From Shigella phage ESh21, in sequence record ON528731: DNA of 64,000 nt; one strand, written 5' to 3'. The notes beneath the pieces were generated by a model. That model was not told the origin of the DNA and made no database searches. It saw only the letters and a program-made list of their open reading frames with translations. The position numbers and the translations under genes are program-made. Positions 38,842 through 55,852 of the stretch are shown in pieces. Numbering within the stretch: the first letter of the stretch is position 1; each line of letters starts with the position of its first letter.

Positions 38842-38867
38842 ATAAAAAAGGCTCCCGAAGGAGCCTA
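38842..38867 (-). terminator. rho-independent terminator (minus strand)
   Basis: AGGCTCC-CGAA-GGAGCCT hairpin with T-run on minus strand, downstream of endolysin. Confidence 0.6.
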
Positions 38868-38875
38868 TGAATATA

Positions 38876-39340
38876 TTACTTTGGATATACCGCGTCAAGA
38901 TAAATCTTCGCTTCCATTCTACGTCTGTTTGTCAGACCTTTAGAAGCAACTTTCTTACCGTTGATGGTTACCTTATTCCACCACTGCATAGCTTCTGCAC
39001 AGCCAACTTTGTTACCAGCATTGTGACGCCTCATGAAGGTTGATTCCTTCATAGCCCCAATACCGATGTTGTAGGTTTCAATAACCAGTGCGTCAAATTC
39101 ATTCTGGGTAGTTGGAGCACTGATAGCTTTGTTCACAGCTACTACAAACTTCTCAACATCAGCAAGTAGATAACTGTTAGCTTGGGCTTCATTGATTTTC
39201 ATACCCATCTTGACAGGTTGACCATTGATACGGATTGTACCATAACCAATTGTAGGAATACCAGCAGAGTCTTTGTAGGCTTCTAAACGAAGCCCCTCAA
39301 AGAACTTGATAGCTTCCAATCCTTGAGGGGATAATTGCAT
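38876..39340 (-). CDS. endolysin (phage lysozyme, GH24-like)
   Basis: GLEAIKFFEGLRLEAYKDSAGIPTIGYG matches the lysozyme E...D...T catalytic region. Confidence 0.8.
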   Translation of the reverse strand: MQLSPQGLEAIKFFEGLRLEAYKDSAGIPTIGYGTIRINGQPVKMGMKINEAQANSYLLADVEKFVVAVNKAISAPTTQNEFDALVIETYNIGIGAMKESTFMRRHNAGNKVGCAEAMQWWNKVTINGKKVASKGLTNRRRMEAKIYLDAVYPK

Positions 39341-39342
39341 TT

Positions 39343-40227
39343 TTAACCTCCTACTACGTTAACCACTACAGTAGCTGGGTTTGAAGTAACACTTCCACCT
39401 GCTCCAGTAACTACACATACATAACTTCCTGCATCACCAGCAGTCGTAGTATTCTCTTTGGTGTAGGTTGCTGCTGTAGCACCAGAGATTTCTACATTAT
39501 CTTTCTTCCACTGGTAACCTGTAGCTCCGGTTGCAACAATATCAAGAGTCAGTGTGTCACCTTCAGTGATTTCTTGGTTTGCTGGCTGTTTAGTGATTAC
39601 TGGAAGTGCATTCACAGTAACTGTTGCAGCATCTGAAGTGACAGTTGCACCACCATCACCAGTAACTACACAGGTGTAAGACCCAGCATCAGCAGGGGTT
39701 ACGTTTGTTTTAGTGTATGTTGCAGAAGTTGCACCAGAGATGTTAGAAGCACCCTTCTTCCACTGGTAACCAGTTGCATTTGTAGCAACAACTGTCAAGG
39801 TTAGAGTACCACCCTCATTAACAGTTTGGTTAGTTGGCTGCGTGGTGATAGCTGGTGGCACAACTGCATCAATCAGTTTAGCATTCAGCATTGAGAAAGG
39901 TTTAACCCTTGCAAGCCATTCACAGTAAATAGTGTCAACATCTTTACCGTTGATGATTGCATACTGCAAATCCATGAAGAAGTCAGCAGTTCTCATTTGA
40001 GCACCTACAGAGTATAGTAGTTCTTCAGAGAATGGAACTGTGTAGCTTGGGGTGTAGTTTAAATCGGTAACCTCAGCAATGTCTGACTCAGGCCACGGAG
40101 AGCTATATGTCAGTGGTAGCACAGCTTCTTGATACGTTCTGAAGTCGTATCTCTTACCAGCTTTAACATTCGCAATAAAAACCTTTACGAACTCTTTAAA
40201 ATCTGGATATGTTTTTGCTTTAATCAT
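39343..40227 (-). CDS. protein with N-terminal paralog domain and two C-terminal Ig-like repeats
   Basis: two 80-aa repeats (TLTLTVVATNATGYQWKK...SYTCVVTG and TLTLDIVATGATGYQWKK...SYVCVVTG); N-terminal 120 aa paralogous to 40224..40592. Confidence 0.55.
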   Translation of the reverse strand: MIKAKTYPDFKEFVKVFIANVKAGKRYDFRTYQEAVLPLTYSSPWPESDIAEVTDLNYTPSYTVPFSEELLYSVGAQMRTADFFMDLQYAIINGKDVDTIYCEWLARVKPFSMLNAKLIDAVVPPAITTQPTNQTVNEGGTLTLTVVATNATGYQWKKGASNISGATSATYTKTNVTPADAGSYTCVVTGDGGATVTSDAATVTVNALPVITKQPANQEITEGDTLTLDIVATGATGYQWKKDNVEISGATAATYTKENTTTAGDAGSYVCVVTGAGGSVTSNPATVVVNVVGG

Positions 40228-40592
40228 TTATTAGCCTCTAATCTTGCGTTTAGTCTGAAATAACCTTTGTGTTGAGGTGATACATCACCAACTACAACAC
40301 CTTCAATCTTATAACCCTTTCCCATTACATACTGAATGTCCATTAAGAATGTCCCTAGACCAACAATATGAAACATCGGATAAAGTAACTCTTCAGAATC
40401 TGGTAGGTCAGTTTTTGGGATGTATTTAACGGTAGCTGTAGTTGGGTTGATATCCTTCTCAGGCCATTTACTATCACGCCATGTTAAGGGTGTCGGAAGT
40501 ACATCATCAAGATTATACCTTTCACCTTCTTGAACACTTTGGACATAAGATTGTAGGAAGCAATAAAAGTCTTTTCTACTCTTTGCCTTCAT
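40224..40592 (-). CDS. paralog of N-terminal domain of 39343..40227
   Basis: shared motifs SEELLY, FxMDxQY, LNAxL. Confidence 0.5.
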   Translation of the reverse strand: MKAKSRKDFYCFLQSYVQSVQEGERYNLDDVLPTPLTWRDSKWPEKDINPTTATVKYIPKTDLPDSEELLYPMFHIVGLGTFLMDIQYVMGKGYKIEGVVVGDVSPQHKGYFRLNARLEANK

Positions 40593-40607: not shown

Positions 40608-40630
40608 AATAAAAAGGGGCTTTCGCCCCA
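40608..40630 (-). terminator. hairpin terminator (bidirectional-looking)
   Basis: GGGGC-TTTC-GCCCC flanked by A/T runs. Confidence 0.5.
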
Positions 40631-40635
40631 AAAAC

Positions 40636-41226
40636 TTAAGCCATCGTCTTAAGCATATTTTTAAGTTTTTTGAGATTCATTGTCTCGTCCAACTTAAATC
40701 CAAACCCATTGACGTAATCAATGAAATCAGATTTCTTACTCAGAGATAAAGCATATGACATATCAAAGTCATTACTTGGGGTTGATTCTGGTGAAGTGTT
40801 CACATCAAAAGAAATCTCTGTAGCAATGCTTTCACGCTCTCTCATATTATCAATAAGATTACATGTGTAGTTTGCTGGATAGAATGATGTTGAGCCAGAT
40901 ACATAACTATACTTTGAGTTATGGATGAGGTTAGAGAACACTTTGAAGAATGTCTCTGAATCGTGGCATACAAGCTTAAATTCACTATTAGCACCAAGAG
41001 CCATTAATGAATATGGGCTTTCACCATCAATTGTGTAGTCTGGATTTCTGGATTGTACAGTCACGCGCATAAGGTTGTTTGAAATAGTCTTCTGCTTAAA
41101 TGAGTTTGGAACATAGTGCATACCTCTTTCACACTGATTGACCAATTCTTTTAGAAGGTCATCAGAATACGGTGAAGTAATTGATACAGAACCATCACCG
41201 TTGTAATTAAAACTTACGTTTAACAT
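40636..41226 (-). CDS. hypothetical protein
   Basis: 196-aa ORF. Confidence 0.5.
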   Translation of the reverse strand: MLNVSFNYNGDGSVSITSPYSDDLLKELVNQCERGMHYVPNSFKQKTISNNLMRVTVQSRNPDYTIDGESPYSLMALGANSEFKLVCHDSETFFKVFSNLIHNSKYSYVSGSTSFYPANYTCNLIDNMRERESIATEISFDVNTSPESTPSNDFDMSYALSLSKKSDFIDYVNGFGFKLDETMNLKKLKNMLKTMA

Positions 41227-42219: not shown

Positions 42220-42297
42220 TTTAAAAAGGTGTTGACAGACTTTATTGGTTACTTTAGAGTCTGTCTCATCAACAACAATGAGAGAAGAGAGAGTATT

Positions 42298-43713
42298 ATG
42301 AGCGAATTATTTAACCACGCAAAATTACATGCTGGTTTGACTGAAAACGGTGCTGTTAACCATCTGACCTCAATGTCTGCCTTGGTAGACTTTTATAAGG
42401 CTGCTGGTTCAAGCCGTAACTACCCAGAGACTTTACCAAATCTGTTTTACAAAGCTCTGCGAGAAGATATCGATGTAGCGGTTCGAATCTTACTCCATAT
42501 GCGAGATGCGCGAGAAGGTATGGGAGAACGTAAAGCATTCAGAACTGTCCTCTCAGAATCTATCAGAACCAACATACTTGATGAGTTCCAAGTTCTGCGT
42601 ATCATGGCTAAGATTTCTGAACTAGGTCGTTATGATGACTTCAAAATCTTCGTAGGTACTCGTTACGAGACTGATGCTTTCAAGCACATTGAGCAAGGAT
42701 TGTTAGACCCAAATACTTCAGCGTTAGCTGCTAAGTGGTTGCCAAGGGTTAAGAAGCGTCACATGAATTTTGTAAAGCGTTTCTGCAAGTTTGCAAATCT
42801 AAGCCAGAAAGAGTATCGTCTGATGTTATCAGCACTGTCAGATACCGTAGAGCAAAAGATTTCTGCAAATGAGTTTGGTGAGATTGATTACAGCAAGCTT
42901 CCTTCACTGGCTGCTGCACGTTATCAGAAATTGTTCACACGAAAAGGTGGAGAACGTTATGCAGAGTATGTAAAAGCTCTGACAGAGGGTACTACCAAGA
43001 TTAACGCTGGTGCTGTTTACCCATATGATATCACCAAAGCTGTGAAGTACGGTCGTAGTGAAGTGGCTAATGAGCAATGGAAAGCACTGCCAAACTGGAT
43101 GAAGGATGGTGAAAACATTCTTTGCATGACTGACGTATCAGGCTCTATGACGTGTGAACGTCACGGTTCTGTAGATGCTCTTGATATTGGTGTATCTTTG
43201 GCGTTATACGTCGCAGAACGCAATACAGGGTGTTTTAAAGATGAGTTAATGGTTTACTCCACAAATCCATTCTTTATCACTCTAAGTGGCTCTCTGAAGA
43301 ATCGTATGGCTCAGGTCATGTCACATGTAGAGTATGGTTCAACAAACCTCCAAGCTGCTTTTGACAGGATTCTTGAAATTGGTAAAAGAAATAACTTGAC
43401 TCAAGATGCAATGCCACGTAAGCTTATCATCTTCTCTGACATGCAGTTTAACTCTGTTGATGGTCAGCGTGGTAATACTAACTTCGAAGCAATTCGTCGT
43501 AAGTATGAAGAATCAGGTTATGAAATGCCTCAGTTGGTATTCTGGTATCTGGCAAATCGTGGTGGTAACTGCGAAGTGTCTATTAAGGATAACGGAGTAG
43601 CAATGGTTTCAGGGTTCTCTCCAGCTACATTAAAGGCTCTACTTGGTGGTGAGAAGTTTGACCCAATCAGCGTAATGCTCAAAGCAGTAATGTCTGAACG
43701 TTACGATTGGTAA
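42298..43713 (+). CDS. vWA-domain protein (MIDAS DxSxS), Ro60/TROVE-like architecture possible
   Basis: C-terminal half has ILCMTDVSGSMT (DxSGS MIDAS) and IFSDMQFN; N-terminal half predicted helical; start 42298 after GAGAGAAGAGAGAG preferred over 42229. Confidence 0.55.
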   Translation: MSELFNHAKLHAGLTENGAVNHLTSMSALVDFYKAAGSSRNYPETLPNLFYKALREDIDVAVRILLHMRDAREGMGERKAFRTVLSESIRTNILDEFQVLRIMAKISELGRYDDFKIFVGTRYETDAFKHIEQGLLDPNTSALAAKWLPRVKKRHMNFVKRFCKFANLSQKEYRLMLSALSDTVEQKISANEFGEIDYSKLPSLAAARYQKLFTRKGGERYAEYVKALTEGTTKINAGAVYPYDITKAVKYGRSEVANEQWKALPNWMKDGENILCMTDVSGSMTCERHGSVDALDIGVSLALYVAERNTGCFKDELMVYSTNPFFITLSGSLKNRMAQVMSHVEYGSTNLQAAFDRILEIGKRNNLTQDAMPRKLIIFSDMQFNSVDGQRGNTNFEAIRRKYEESGYEMPQLVFWYLANRGGNCEVSIKDNGVAMVSGFSPATLKALLGGEKFDPISVMLKAVMSERYDW

Positions 43714-43878: not shown

Positions 43879-43955
43879 CTCTGTTTAGCTCAGCTTGGTA
43901 GAGCGTTCCGTTTGGGGCGGTAAGGCCAGAGGTTCAAGTCCTCTAACAGAGACCA
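43879..43955 (+). tRNA. tRNA-Pro (anticodon TGG)
   Basis: manual cloverleaf: acceptor CTCTGTT/AACAGAG, T-loop TTCAAGT, CCA encoded. Confidence 0.7.
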
Positions 43956-43962
43956 AATTAAT

Positions 43963-44037
43963 GTCGTAGAAGGCAAATGGTTAGCCACCTGACCTTCAAT
44001 CAGTTGCTCGCGGGTTCGAATCCCGTCTACGACTCCA
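43963..44037 (+). tRNA. tRNA, anticodon probably TTC (Glu), tentative
   Basis: acceptor GTCGTAG/CTACGAC, T-arm GCGGG-TTCGAAT-CCCGT, CCA encoded; anticodon loop CCTTCAA has C at position 33. Confidence 0.55.
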
Positions 44038-44122
44038 AATTTGACAGAAGACCAAATACAGCAAACAACTTTTACTTTTCGCGCATAGAAAACATAAAAA
44101 GCTTGGTCTGGTCATTAAGAAT
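44038..44122 (+). repeat. structured inter-tRNA spacer element (family CAGAAGACC...GGTCTGG), copy 1
   Basis: begins right after CCA; conserved ends shared with copies at 44200, 44604, 44685. Confidence 0.6.
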
Positions 44123-44199
44123 CGCGGGTATAGAGAAAGGGCGTCTCACATGTCTCATTAGCATGGCAACGGTTGGTTCGACTCCAACACCCGCCTCCA
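44123..44199 (+). tRNA. tRNA with anticodon CAT (Met or Ile2 or fMet)
   Basis: anticodon arm CATGT-CTCATTA-GCATG, T-loop TTCGACT, CCA encoded; C1-C72 mismatch. Confidence 0.6.
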
Positions 44200-44282
44200 A
44201 ATTTACAGAAGACCGTTTACAGCAATTTAAAAACAATTTTATCGGAAAATTAAAATGAATACGGTCTGGTAATGTTAAACAT
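44200..44282 (+). repeat. structured inter-tRNA spacer element, copy 2
   Basis: AAATTTACAGAAGACCGTTTACAGCAATTTAAA...ACGGTCTGGTAAT. Confidence 0.6.
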
Positions 44283-44359
44283 GGTTAGGAAGCACATAAG
44301 GCATGTGCGGTCGGCTGTTAACCGAATGGCACAGGGTTCGAATCCCTGACTAACCGCCA
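44283..44359 (+). tRNA. tRNA-Asn (anticodon GTT)
   Basis: D-arm GCAC/GTGC, anticodon loop CTGTTAA, T-arm CAGGG-TTCGAAT-CCCTG, CCA encoded. Confidence 0.7.
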
Positions 44360-44369
44360 AAATTTAAAT

Positions 44370-44457
44370 GCGTCGTTATCCCGTAGATGGAAGCGGTGGC
44401 GACTGTAAATCGCTTGTCATTACGACTCGGTAGGTTCGACTCCTTCACGGCGCACCA
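44370..44457 (+). tRNA. tRNA-Tyr (anticodon GTA), long variable arm
   Basis: 88 nt; anticodon arm GGCGA-CTGTAAA-TCGCT; variable stem GTC/GAC; resembles E. coli tRNA-Tyr layout. Confidence 0.6.
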
Positions 44458-44463
44458 AATAAA

Positions 44464-44541
44464 GGTTATGTAGTTTAATCTGGTTAAAATACCTCCCTGT
44501 CACGGAGGAAGATGTGGGTTCGAGTCCCATCGTAACCGCCA
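44464..44541 (+). tRNA. tRNA-Asp (anticodon GTC)
   Basis: anticodon arm CCTCC-CTGTCAC-GGAGG, T-loop TTCGAGT, CCA encoded. Confidence 0.7.
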
Positions 44542-44603
44542 ATTTTGAGAAGGGCTTTTTTAGCCCCTCCCTTAAAGAGTTCTTGTGAGTATTCTTTAAA
44601 GGA

Positions 44604-44685
44604 GCAGAAGACCAAATTCAGCAAGCAACAAAAATATTTCAAGCCAATTAATTTGAAAAATTTAAAACTTGGTCTGGTTCCAACA
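44604..44685 (+). repeat. structured inter-tRNA spacer element, copy 3
   Basis: GCAGAAGACCAAATTCAGCAAGC...CTTGGTCTGGTTCC. Confidence 0.6.
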
Positions 44686-54745: not shown

Positions 54746-55852
54746 ATGGCATTAACTAATTCTGAAAAAAGCAGATTTTTCCTTGCTGACCTGACTGGTG
54801 AAGTCCAGTCTATCCCAAATACTTACGGTTATATTTCCGGTTTGGGACTGTTCCGTTCTGCTCCACAGACTCAAACTACTTTCCTGATGGACTTGACAGA
54901 TTGGGATATCAGCTTGCTTGACGCTGTAGACCGCACTAGCCGTAAAGCTGAAACAAGTGCTCCTGAACGTGTTAAGCAGATTAGCTTCCCAATGATGTAC
55001 TTCAAGGAAGTTGAAAGCATCACTCCTGACGAAATTCAGGGTGTACGTCAGCCAGGCACTGCAAATGAACTGACTACTGAAGCAGTTGTACGTGCTAAGA
55101 AGCTGATGAAGATTCGTACCAAGTTCGATATTACTCGTGAGTTCTTGTTCATGCAAGCCCTGAAGGGTAAAGTAATTGACGCTAACGGTGTTCTGTACGC
55201 AGACCTGTACAAGCAGTTCGATGTAACTAAGAAGACTATCTACTTCGACCTTGACAACCCGAACTCTGATATCGATGCGCACATTGAAGACCTGCGTATG
55301 CACATGGAAGACGAAGCTAAGACAGGTACTGTAATTAACGGTGAAGAAATTCACATCGTTGTTGACAGAACTTTCTTCAGCAAACTTACCAAGCATCCGA
55401 AGATTCGTGACGCATATCTTGCACAGCAGACTCCTCTTGCTTGGCAGCAGATTACTGGTTCTCTAAGAACTGGTGGTTCTGATGGTGTTCAGGCTCATAT
55501 GAACACATTCTACTACGGTGGTGTTAAGTTTGTCCAGTACAACGGTAAGTTCAAAGACAAGCGTAACAAGACTCACACTCTGGTGAGCATTGACGGTGTG
55601 TCCGATGTTAATATCGGTGTAGGTCACGCTTTCCCTAACGTTGCAATGCTGGGTGAAGCAAACAACATCTTTGAAGTGGCTTATGCTCCATGTCCTAAGA
55701 TGGGTTACGCAAACACTCTTGGTCAGGAACTGTACGTATTCGAATATGAAAAAGACCGTGACGAAGGTATTGACTTCGAAGCTCACTCTTACATGCTTCC
55801 ATACTGCACACGTCCTCAGTTACTGGTTGACGTTCGTTCAGATGCTGCTTAA
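54746..55852 (+). CDS. major capsid protein (lambda gpE-like/HK97 fold)
   Basis: 368 aa, high-expression codon usage, position after protease and decoration genes. Confidence 0.7.
   Translation: MALTNSEKSRFFLADLTGEVQSIPNTYGYISGLGLFRSAPQTQTTFLMDLTDWDISLLDAVDRTSRKAETSAPERVKQISFPMMYFKEVESITPDEIQGVRQPGTANELTTEAVVRAKKLMKIRTKFDITREFLFMQALKGKVIDANGVLYADLYKQFDVTKKTIYFDLDNPNSDIDAHIEDLRMHMEDEAKTGTVINGEEIHIVVDRTFFSKLTKHPKIRDAYLAQQTPLAWQQITGSLRTGGSDGVQAHMNTFYYGGVKFVQYNGKFKDKRNKTHTLVSIDGVSDVNIGVGHAFPNVAMLGEANNIFEVAYAPCPKMGYANTLGQELYVFEYEKDRDEGIDFEAHSYMLPYCTRPQLLVDVRSDAA

Follow-up and report, generated by a model that had tools for sequence, protein, structure and literature searches.

The endolysin gene of Shigella phage ESh21 is adjoined by two genes on the minus strand whose products resemble each other at their N-termini, which raises the question of what these two proteins do and whether they act as a pair. 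The window analyzed here is a stretch of 64,000 nucleotides from sequence record ON528731, and the two genes occupy positions 39,343 to 40,592 within it. A first-pass annotation of this sequence had suggested that the pair forms a modular decoration or adhesin system. We propose that the product of the long gene is almost certainly a decoration protein positioned at the center of capsid hexamers, with an outward fiber of Ig-like domains, and that the product of the short gene, judging from its predicted structure, is the capsid-binding domain (CapBD) of such a protein with nothing attached, a tandem duplicate of that domain alone. As an explanation of the long and short genes together, this account is in our judgment likely to be the best one. 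Coordinates are collected in Table 1.

By sequence similarity, the window belongs to a Mooglevirus-like phage of the Ounavirinae; over the 2.5 kb that surround the gene pair, it is 98% identical to Shigella phage ESh22 and 78-86% identical to members of Mooglevirus, Suspvirus, and Felixounavirus, all within the Ounavirinae. We used phmmer to align the long protein against sequences in the PDB; this analysis identified chain S of 9NCF (9ncf_S, E = 5e-256), the “Immunoglobulin-like domain protein” of phage Bas63, and chain S of 9C2D/9C3A (9c2d_S, E = 3e-170), deposited as “tail protein” of phage Sf14, with alignments beginning at residue 1. These two proteins, Bas63 Hex-Dec and Sf14 gp20, are monomeric decoration proteins at the centers of the pentamer-adjacent hexamers of a T=9 head, and facet-center hexamers are without density in both heads (PMC11821841, PMC12609058). 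The capsid-binding domain comprises the N-terminal 118 residues; the Ig-like domains are unresolved in the solved heads and are thought to act in a Hoc-like manner, and both proteins were also detected by mass spectrometry (PMC11821841, PMC12609058). In Sf14, R79 and R107 of gp20 form salt bridges to Asp221 of three capsid subunits (PMC11821841). Both arginines are present in the window protein, and they are invariant in 39/39 long homologs.

The binding partner is encoded in the window as well, as the structural module, including the gene for the major capsid protein (MCP), lies inside it. From end to end, the MCP aligns with Sf14 gp34 (phmmer, E = 7e-245), and the two are nearly identical, with a handful of substitutions in the alignment; the Asp equivalent to D221 of gp34 is kept, and the KIRD motif aligns with residues 218-221 of 9c2d_A.

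The two tandem Ig-like repeats described in the first-pass annotation are borne out by three lines of evidence. Within the C-terminal region of the long protein, Pfam models Ig_3 (1.4e-19), Ig_2 (8.8e-17), and I-set (1.2e-12) each match two stretches; the first repeat aligns to the second with 69% identity over 83 aa (E = 1e-33), and the DNA is likewise 69% identical. The AlphaFold2 (AF2) model has a predicted local distance difference test score (pLDDT) of 86 overall, and both Ig domains are all-beta with a pLDDT of 95-97. Two domains, as identified by Pfam and AF2, fall within the family range of 1-4. The Felix O1 ortholog (ORF79, renamed gp36, 31.6 kDa) was detected at 44% coverage in purified virions. 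Together with the cryo-electron microscopy (cryo-EM) and mass spectrometry of Sf14 gp20 and Bas63 Hex-Dec, this places homologs of the long protein on virions, and an Ig fold is present; for the long gene, the earlier suggestion of an Ig-like/Hoc-type decoration protein is thus upheld.

Most GenBank records, UniRef, and PHROG label these genes differently (“tail protein,” “HK97 major tail subunit”), and phrog_158 and phrog_853 (“major tail protein”) do match the long protein, in its Ig region only. These tail-family matches are restricted to promiscuous Ig domains, whereas the cryo-EM models (9C2D, 9NCF) put the homolog on capsid hexamers, and the authors of the Bas63 study state that the customary “tail protein” annotation is wrong (PMC12609058). 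We therefore consider it extremely unlikely that both genes encode tail proteins, and for the long protein this identity is refuted by the head location in the solved structures.

By analogy with the solved heads, the CapBD of the long protein (120 aa, mostly helical) would center one monomer on each of 60 pentamer-adjacent hexamers of a T=9 head, with Asp221 of three capsid subunits as the anchor for Arg79 and Arg107. The two Ig-like domains at the C-terminus would then point outward as a short flexible fiber, like T4 Hoc with reversed domain order. The role of this fiber, as we infer it from proposals for Hoc, is probably weak adhesion or aggregation (mucus, glycans, cell surfaces) and not capsid stability. 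Two points should be set against this picture: the virion evidence (cryo-EM, mass spectrometry) comes from homologs, and an adhesive role is likewise only proposed for Sf14 and Bas63. Even the studies that solved the homologs offer adhesion of the Ig domains to glycans or to the host surface, which the first-pass annotation had favored, as a hypothesis. With the long gene, a structurally characterized family gains one more two-Ig member; two-Ig variants were published in 2025, so this part is known biology. It changes little, as the “tail protein” mis-annotation was already corrected by the Sf14 and Bas63 structure papers.

Two further observations concern the Ig repeats (39343-39861). Outside phages, the PDB entry that they match best is 9FLP, the grappling-hook protein GhpA from Aureispira, a predatory bacterium (E = 5e-48 with nine stretches); animal Ig domains match far more weakly. 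In addition, a sharp recombination breakpoint separates the window from Shigella phage Henu11 (L020) near position 39877, which corresponds to Hex-Dec residue ~117-120 in the linker between the CapBD and the Ig domains. Identity to Henu11 is 96-100% from 41136 to ~39877 (~91% over the opening 90 bases of the upstream 196-aa gene) and ~65-89% beyond ~39877 (Ig domains, lysozyme, and further). There is a single Ig domain in Henu11, as opposed to two in the window; the position of the breakpoint and the differing domain number point to domain shuffling exactly at the domain boundary.

The 120-aa N-terminal domain shared by the two adjoining genes was confirmed at the positions given in the first-pass annotation. 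Over its entire length, the short protein aligns with residues 1-120 of the long protein, with 34% identity and 55% positives (E = 4e-16). The Smith-Waterman score for the two proteins is 145, compared with 27.1 ± 5.0 (maximum 55) across 1000 shuffles (z = 23). Both paralogs contain the motifs SEELLY and F(F/L)MD(L/I)QY, the latter reported previously as FxMDxQY. Based on the alignment to Sf14 gp20, this common domain is the capsid-binding domain, which the first-pass annotation had not recognized.

The short protein has no match in Pfam, and it ends at residue 122 without displayed Ig-like domains. In PHROG, it matches phrog_4463 (“unknown function,” E = 3e-75). AF2 predicted its structure with a pLDDT of 79 and a predicted template modeling score (pTM) of 0.79. 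When this model was compared with the PDB using Foldseek, the only matches were 9c2d_S (TM 0.73) and 9ncf_S (TM 0.70), both with probability 1.00, and nothing else fell below E = 0.6. Against the predicted viral structures in BFVD, the short model matched only CapBD proteins of Ounavirinae. Orthologs of the short gene include Sf14 gp21, Bas63 bas63_0125, and Felix O1 ORF81/gp37.

The CapBD fold is essentially confined to the Ounavirinae. A word-indexed search for CapBD relatives recovered only those at ≥75% identity, and when 1.84 billion representative proteins were searched with a HMMER profile, only 13 clusters were identified, one of which (P0102; L and P numbers are our labels for the loci and proteins compared) is a spurious repeat protein.

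Direct reading of the sequence shows a strong Shine-Dalgarno sequence ahead of the short gene (AAGGAAAG) and an ATGA overlap in which its stop codon meets the start codon of Hex-Dec; translational coupling of the two genes is probable. Annotations of KPS64, Sf14, Moogle, Henu11, SEP1, Felix O1, and Bas63 give an overlap of the same 4 nt; those of SUSP2 and ESCO49 give 8 nt, and that of metagenome scaffold L004 gives 1 nt. We also considered fusion of the short and long proteins by frameshifting at the ATGA, which we rejected based on the lack of a canonical slippery site and of any fused homolog in the database matches.

Two terminator-like hairpins bound a three-gene block that consists of the short gene, Hex-Dec, and the endolysin gene. 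Given that the pair adjoins the endolysin gene between the same flanking terminators, in an arrangement conserved across the subfamily, the two genes might be assigned to the lysis cassette as holin, antiholin, or spanin. Neither protein has a transmembrane segment, however (the maximum Kyte-Doolittle 19-residue mean is 1.22 for the short protein and 1.12 for the long protein), and the long protein is a virion component. Moreover, the authors of the Felix O1 study locate holin candidates elsewhere, and phiEa21-4 has a putative holin downstream. A role in lysis is hardly credible, and we rejected it based on the lack of transmembrane segments.

Across ten phages, we calculated pairwise dN/dS using the Nei-Gojobori method. 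The median was 0.12 for the short gene (with dS ~1), 0.10 for the lysozyme, 0.09 for the 196-aa upstream gene, 0.044 for the CapBD of the long gene, and 0.18 for Ig domain 1. Median dN was 0.17 for the short gene vs. 0.084 for the long CapBD, such that the short protein changes about twice as fast. The short gene is present at full length in 232 of the 252 phage records with Hex-Dec. By these measures, the short gene is a real gene under purifying selection. That it is instead a decaying, functionless relic of the duplication would agree with the twofold higher dN and with its dispensability, as one lineage carries only a deleted remnant. A relic would not be expected to show a dN/dS of 0.12 at dS ~1, intact length in 232 records, and a strong Shine-Dalgarno sequence, nor to be retained, as the ortholog P0096 is, in a phage divergent enough for dS to be saturated. 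The relic reading is thus very unlikely, and we rejected it on the dN/dS and the intact length. One record with both genes stands apart from the others: GU169904.1, labeled “Staphylococcus phage SA1,” contains a Felix O1-type short paralog (143193-143558, 77% identity) along with Hex-Dec; its assembly is probably chimeric or contaminated.

Among the records inspected, mio, fBSPA4, fKMPT1, Z31, and REP7 lack an intact short gene. These phages belong to a single Felixounavirus lineage and come from Denmark, India, China, and the USA. All five genomes share the same internal deletion of ~180 bp together with a ruined start region or start codon, leaving a pseudogene remnant. A common deletion in five genomes indicates a single ancestral loss in a successful worldwide lineage; independent, recurrent losses are not supported, as the deletion is identical in 5/5 loss genomes examined. 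The short gene is therefore dispensable in nature. In one of these genomes, Shigella phage Z31 (L024 1798-2370), Hex-Dec is itself split or truncated into a 134-aa CapBD open reading frame (ORF) and a 55-aa fragment; as judged from these reading frames, Z31 would show no complete Ig domain.

The single-copy state is found among more distant relatives. In Erwinia phage phiEa21-4 and its relatives, a single CapBD gene with a fused Big_2 domain lies between a gene of the 196-aa type and the endolysin gene. One CapBD gene in the same synteny is also present in three longer metagenomic relatives that include both flanks (L007-L011), and its product carries an Ig domain in L007/L008 and a disordered Lys/Ser/Glu-rich tail in L009-L011. 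In one of these, P0103 (L009 6001-6462), the low-complexity Lys/Ser/Glu-rich tail of ~30 aa takes the place of any Ig or Big_2 domain. In the Big_2-bearing contigs L006 and L012/13, there is no second copy upstream, and the contigs end near the CapBD gene, such that the downstream side is not judgeable. A divergent 87-kb metagenomic scaffold retains both the short and the long gene, which indicates that the duplication predates that split. Conversely, the single copy in the Erwinia relatives and the metagenomic loci indicates that the duplication is derived; based on this distribution, it arose within the enterobacterial Ounavirinae lineage. In the same 87-kb Ounavirinae-like phage, a gene for a Gad1-family protein (PF25705, anti-Gabija) lies a few kb beyond the pair, on the downstream side (L004 11510-12369).

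Whether the short protein binds the capsid can be approached from the phages with solved heads, both of which encode it. It is unassigned and unmentioned in both capsid structure papers (PMC11821841, PMC12609058), and we likewise found no mention of its gene in the Sf14 supplements, in the papers on the Sf14 tRNAs and on wV8, or in the other literature examined. The Felix O1 ortholog is outside the list of 17 virion proteins, though this list includes proteins of 9.7-13 kDa. The two anchoring arginines are replaced in the short paralogs: the column of R79 contains G in 45/46 sequences, and in the same 46 sequences the column of R107 contains Q (42), H (3), or R (1). Comparison of the paralogs identified 35 positions conserved in both and 39 fixed differences.

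Capsid binding is favored by the common fold, the 35 conserved positions, the ATGA overlap, and the terminator-bounded block. Stable, ordered binding is disfavored by the replaced arginines, the 39 fixed differences, the empty facet-center hexamers, and the absence from the Felix O1 list. With low certainty, we infer that the mature head does not contain the short protein as a stable, ordered component. Several considerations pull the other way. The Felix O1 list is limited to the top 17 proteins at ≥25% coverage, and Table 1 of the Sf14 paper holds only proteins already taken as structural; both weaken the absence of the short protein. Icosahedral averaging would smear a monomer on a 3-fold axis. 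Finally, the R79 position is occupied by S or D in the distant single-copy proteins P0099, P0101, and P0103, and P0096, a divergent short paralog, retains Arg at the second position; the arginines are thus not universal, and their loss does not prove that capsid binding was lost.

The same evidence bears on whether the short protein serves as a second decoration protein without Ig domains, placed on the 20 facet-center hexamers or sharing Hex-Dec sites at low occupancy. Beyond the retained fold with its 35 shared positions and the overlap with Hex-Dec inside one terminator-bounded block, the facet-center hexamers have displaced Asp221 side chains (PMC11821841), and the short protein could have adapted to that site by losing the arginines; Ig-less forms also occur naturally, as in the truncated Hex-Dec of Z31 and in P0103 with its disordered tail. 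Against these points, the other hexamers are without density in both cryo-EM studies, each of a phage that encodes the short gene, the protein is missing from a Felix O1 virion list that includes proteins of 9.7-13 kDa, and one worldwide lineage does without the short gene. On balance, we consider a second decoration protein improbable. The first-pass annotation was correct in seeing a decoration protein in the long gene, but its reading of the pairing as a two-protein system is an over-interpretation, as the short protein is unassigned in both capsid structures, outside the 17-protein Felix O1 list, and without the two arginines.

For the short protein as a CapBD with nothing attached, we tentatively suggest that it may be a transient or low-affinity binder of hexamer centers during head assembly, or a competitor of Hex-Dec. 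Competition with Hex-Dec would tune the number of Ig fibers displayed. Re-use of the CapBD fold for a partner other than the capsid is the main alternative, to which we give about the same weight, short of even odds. More specifically, it is conceivable, if rather doubtful, that the short protein still engages hexamers, transiently on procapsids or by competing, and so helps to set which hexamers, and how many, carry Ig fibers.

Hex-Dec occupies only 60/80 hexamers, and this restriction is currently explained only by small side-chain shifts. The literature examined does not describe any paralog that acts as a dedicated regulator of, or “blank cap” for, a Hoc-type decoration protein. As the short gene is conserved, overlaps Hex-Dec, encodes a CapBD alone, has lost both arginines, and is deleted in one lineage, it offers a natural experiment on decoration occupancy or on the re-use of a capsid-binding fold, and Hoc-type proteins serve as display platforms. 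What is new here is the conservation of the CapBD-only paralog, the selection on it, its loss of the arginines, its single natural deletion, and its derived origin, which together constitute a modest lead.

Table 1. Features of the ESh21 window and corresponding positions in related loci
Feature	Position	Strand	Basis
Short gene, stand-alone CapBD paralog, 122 aa	40224..40592	(-)	ORF; 34% identity to Hex-Dec CapBD, phrog_4463
Long gene, Hex-Dec/gp20-type Hoc-like capsid decoration protein, 294 aa	39343..40227	(-)	phmmer vs. PDB; phrog_3995 E = 1e-161
CapBD of Hex-Dec, residues 1-120, including R79 and R107	39868..40227	(-)	Residue-for-residue alignment with Sf14 gp20 1-118
Ig-like domain 1, residues ~123-207	39607..39861	(-)	Pfam Ig_3/ig/V-set at 124-205; AF2 beta-sandwich, pLDDT ~97
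Ig-like domain 2, residues ~208-294	39346..39606	(-)	Pfam Ig_2/I-set at 209-289; 69% identical to Ig-like domain 1
ATGA overlap, short-gene stop/Hex-Dec start	40224..40227	(-)	Direct sequence reading
Terminator-like hairpin directly upstream of short gene	40616..40629	(-)	GGGGCGAAAGCCCC then T-run; corresponds to Felix O1 terminator t38
Terminator-like hairpin directly after endolysin gene	38849..38866	(-)	AGGCTCCTTCGGGAGCCT then T-run; corresponds to Felix O1 terminator t35
Endolysin of glycoside hydrolase family 24 (GH24), third gene of block	38876..39340	(-)	PF00959 E = 5e-39; phrog_7 endolysin
Conserved 196-aa protein (phrog_4034), immediately upstream of CapBD gene	40636..41226	(-)	Same position in every relative examined
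MCP, Hex-Dec binding partner	54746..55852	(+)	phmmer 9c2d_A E = 7e-245
Short-paralog remnants	L002 2806-2998; L003 2805-2998; L023 1797-1990; L024 and L025 1605-1798		
phrog_4034-type gene in relatives	L026 1580-2197; L009 5444-6001; L012 2622-3173		

The position of the 196-aa gene is also conserved in Erwinia phage phiEa21-4 (gene 39) and in the metagenomic loci; across the relatives examined, the protein is 183-205 aa long. The sole annotation of this family is a faint PF26097 (Phage_Inh_N) match in one relative, and the protein may be a functional partner. Farther along the window, a protein with a von Willebrand factor A (vWA) domain (DUF2828/DUF7788, “RNA-binding protein” in PHROG) is encoded at 42229-43713 (+), directly upstream of an array of 25 tRNA genes at 43879-48614 (+). 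An extra tRNA at 43963-44034 was called by Rfam and missed by ARAGORN; the equivalent position in KPS64 is annotated as tRNA-Glu. Distant relatives also keep the vWA protein, the tRNA array, and DUF5681 together.

Among known systems, Sf14 gp20 (PDB 9C2D/9C3A; Commun Biol 2025, PMC11821841) shares with the window protein homology from residue 1, R79 and R107, an Ig array, an endolysin neighbor, and a preceding short paralog (gp21). It differs in having three Ig-like domains and 372 aa, as opposed to two domains and 294 aa. Hex-Dec of Bas63 (JohannRWettstein; PDB 9NCF; Sci Adv 2025, PMC12609058) is similar in sequence (E = 5e-256), in its site on facet-edge hexamers, and in its neighborhood, which includes bas63_0125, and it differs in having four Ig-like domains and 460 aa. 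Among relatives, the number of Ig-like domains ranges from 1 to 4, and two are found in KPS64 gp94, CHB7 gp95, SUSP1 gp121, Sf13, and Sf17 (PMC11821841, PMC12609058); the two-Ig form in the window resembles the first three of these.

The resemblance to T5 pb10 (PDB 5LXK and 8ZVI, E = 2e-8 and 7e-8) is limited to the Ig domains, of which pb10 has a single one. More distantly, gene 38 of Erwinia phage phiEa21-4 and the BIG2 protein of phiEa104 (Kolesnikvirus) encode a P0099-like CapBD homolog in the same synteny, annotated as a structural protein in its record and matching the short model in BFVD (E = 6e-4). This homolog is a single copy without a short paralog, and it displays Big_2 and not I-set/Ig_3.

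T4 Hoc is likewise a monomer at the hexamer center with an outward string of Ig domains, is non-essential, and has proposed roles in adhesion or aggregation; the Ig regions of the window protein match “Hoc-like” PHROGs and the Hoc model in BFVD (E = 5e-8). The capsid binder is C-terminal in Hoc, whereas it is N-terminal in the window protein, and the CapBD has a distinct topology according to the authors of the Bas63 study (PMC12609058). Our CapBD searches returned no Hoc by sequence at E ≤ 10 and none among the significant fold matches. A CapBD-only Hoc paralog does not appear in the Sf14 and Bas63 structure papers, and no wider search was made. Based on the reversed domain order and the lack of any match between the CapBD and Hoc in sequence or fold, we rejected membership in the T4 Hoc family; the long protein works like Hoc but is not a member of the Hoc family.

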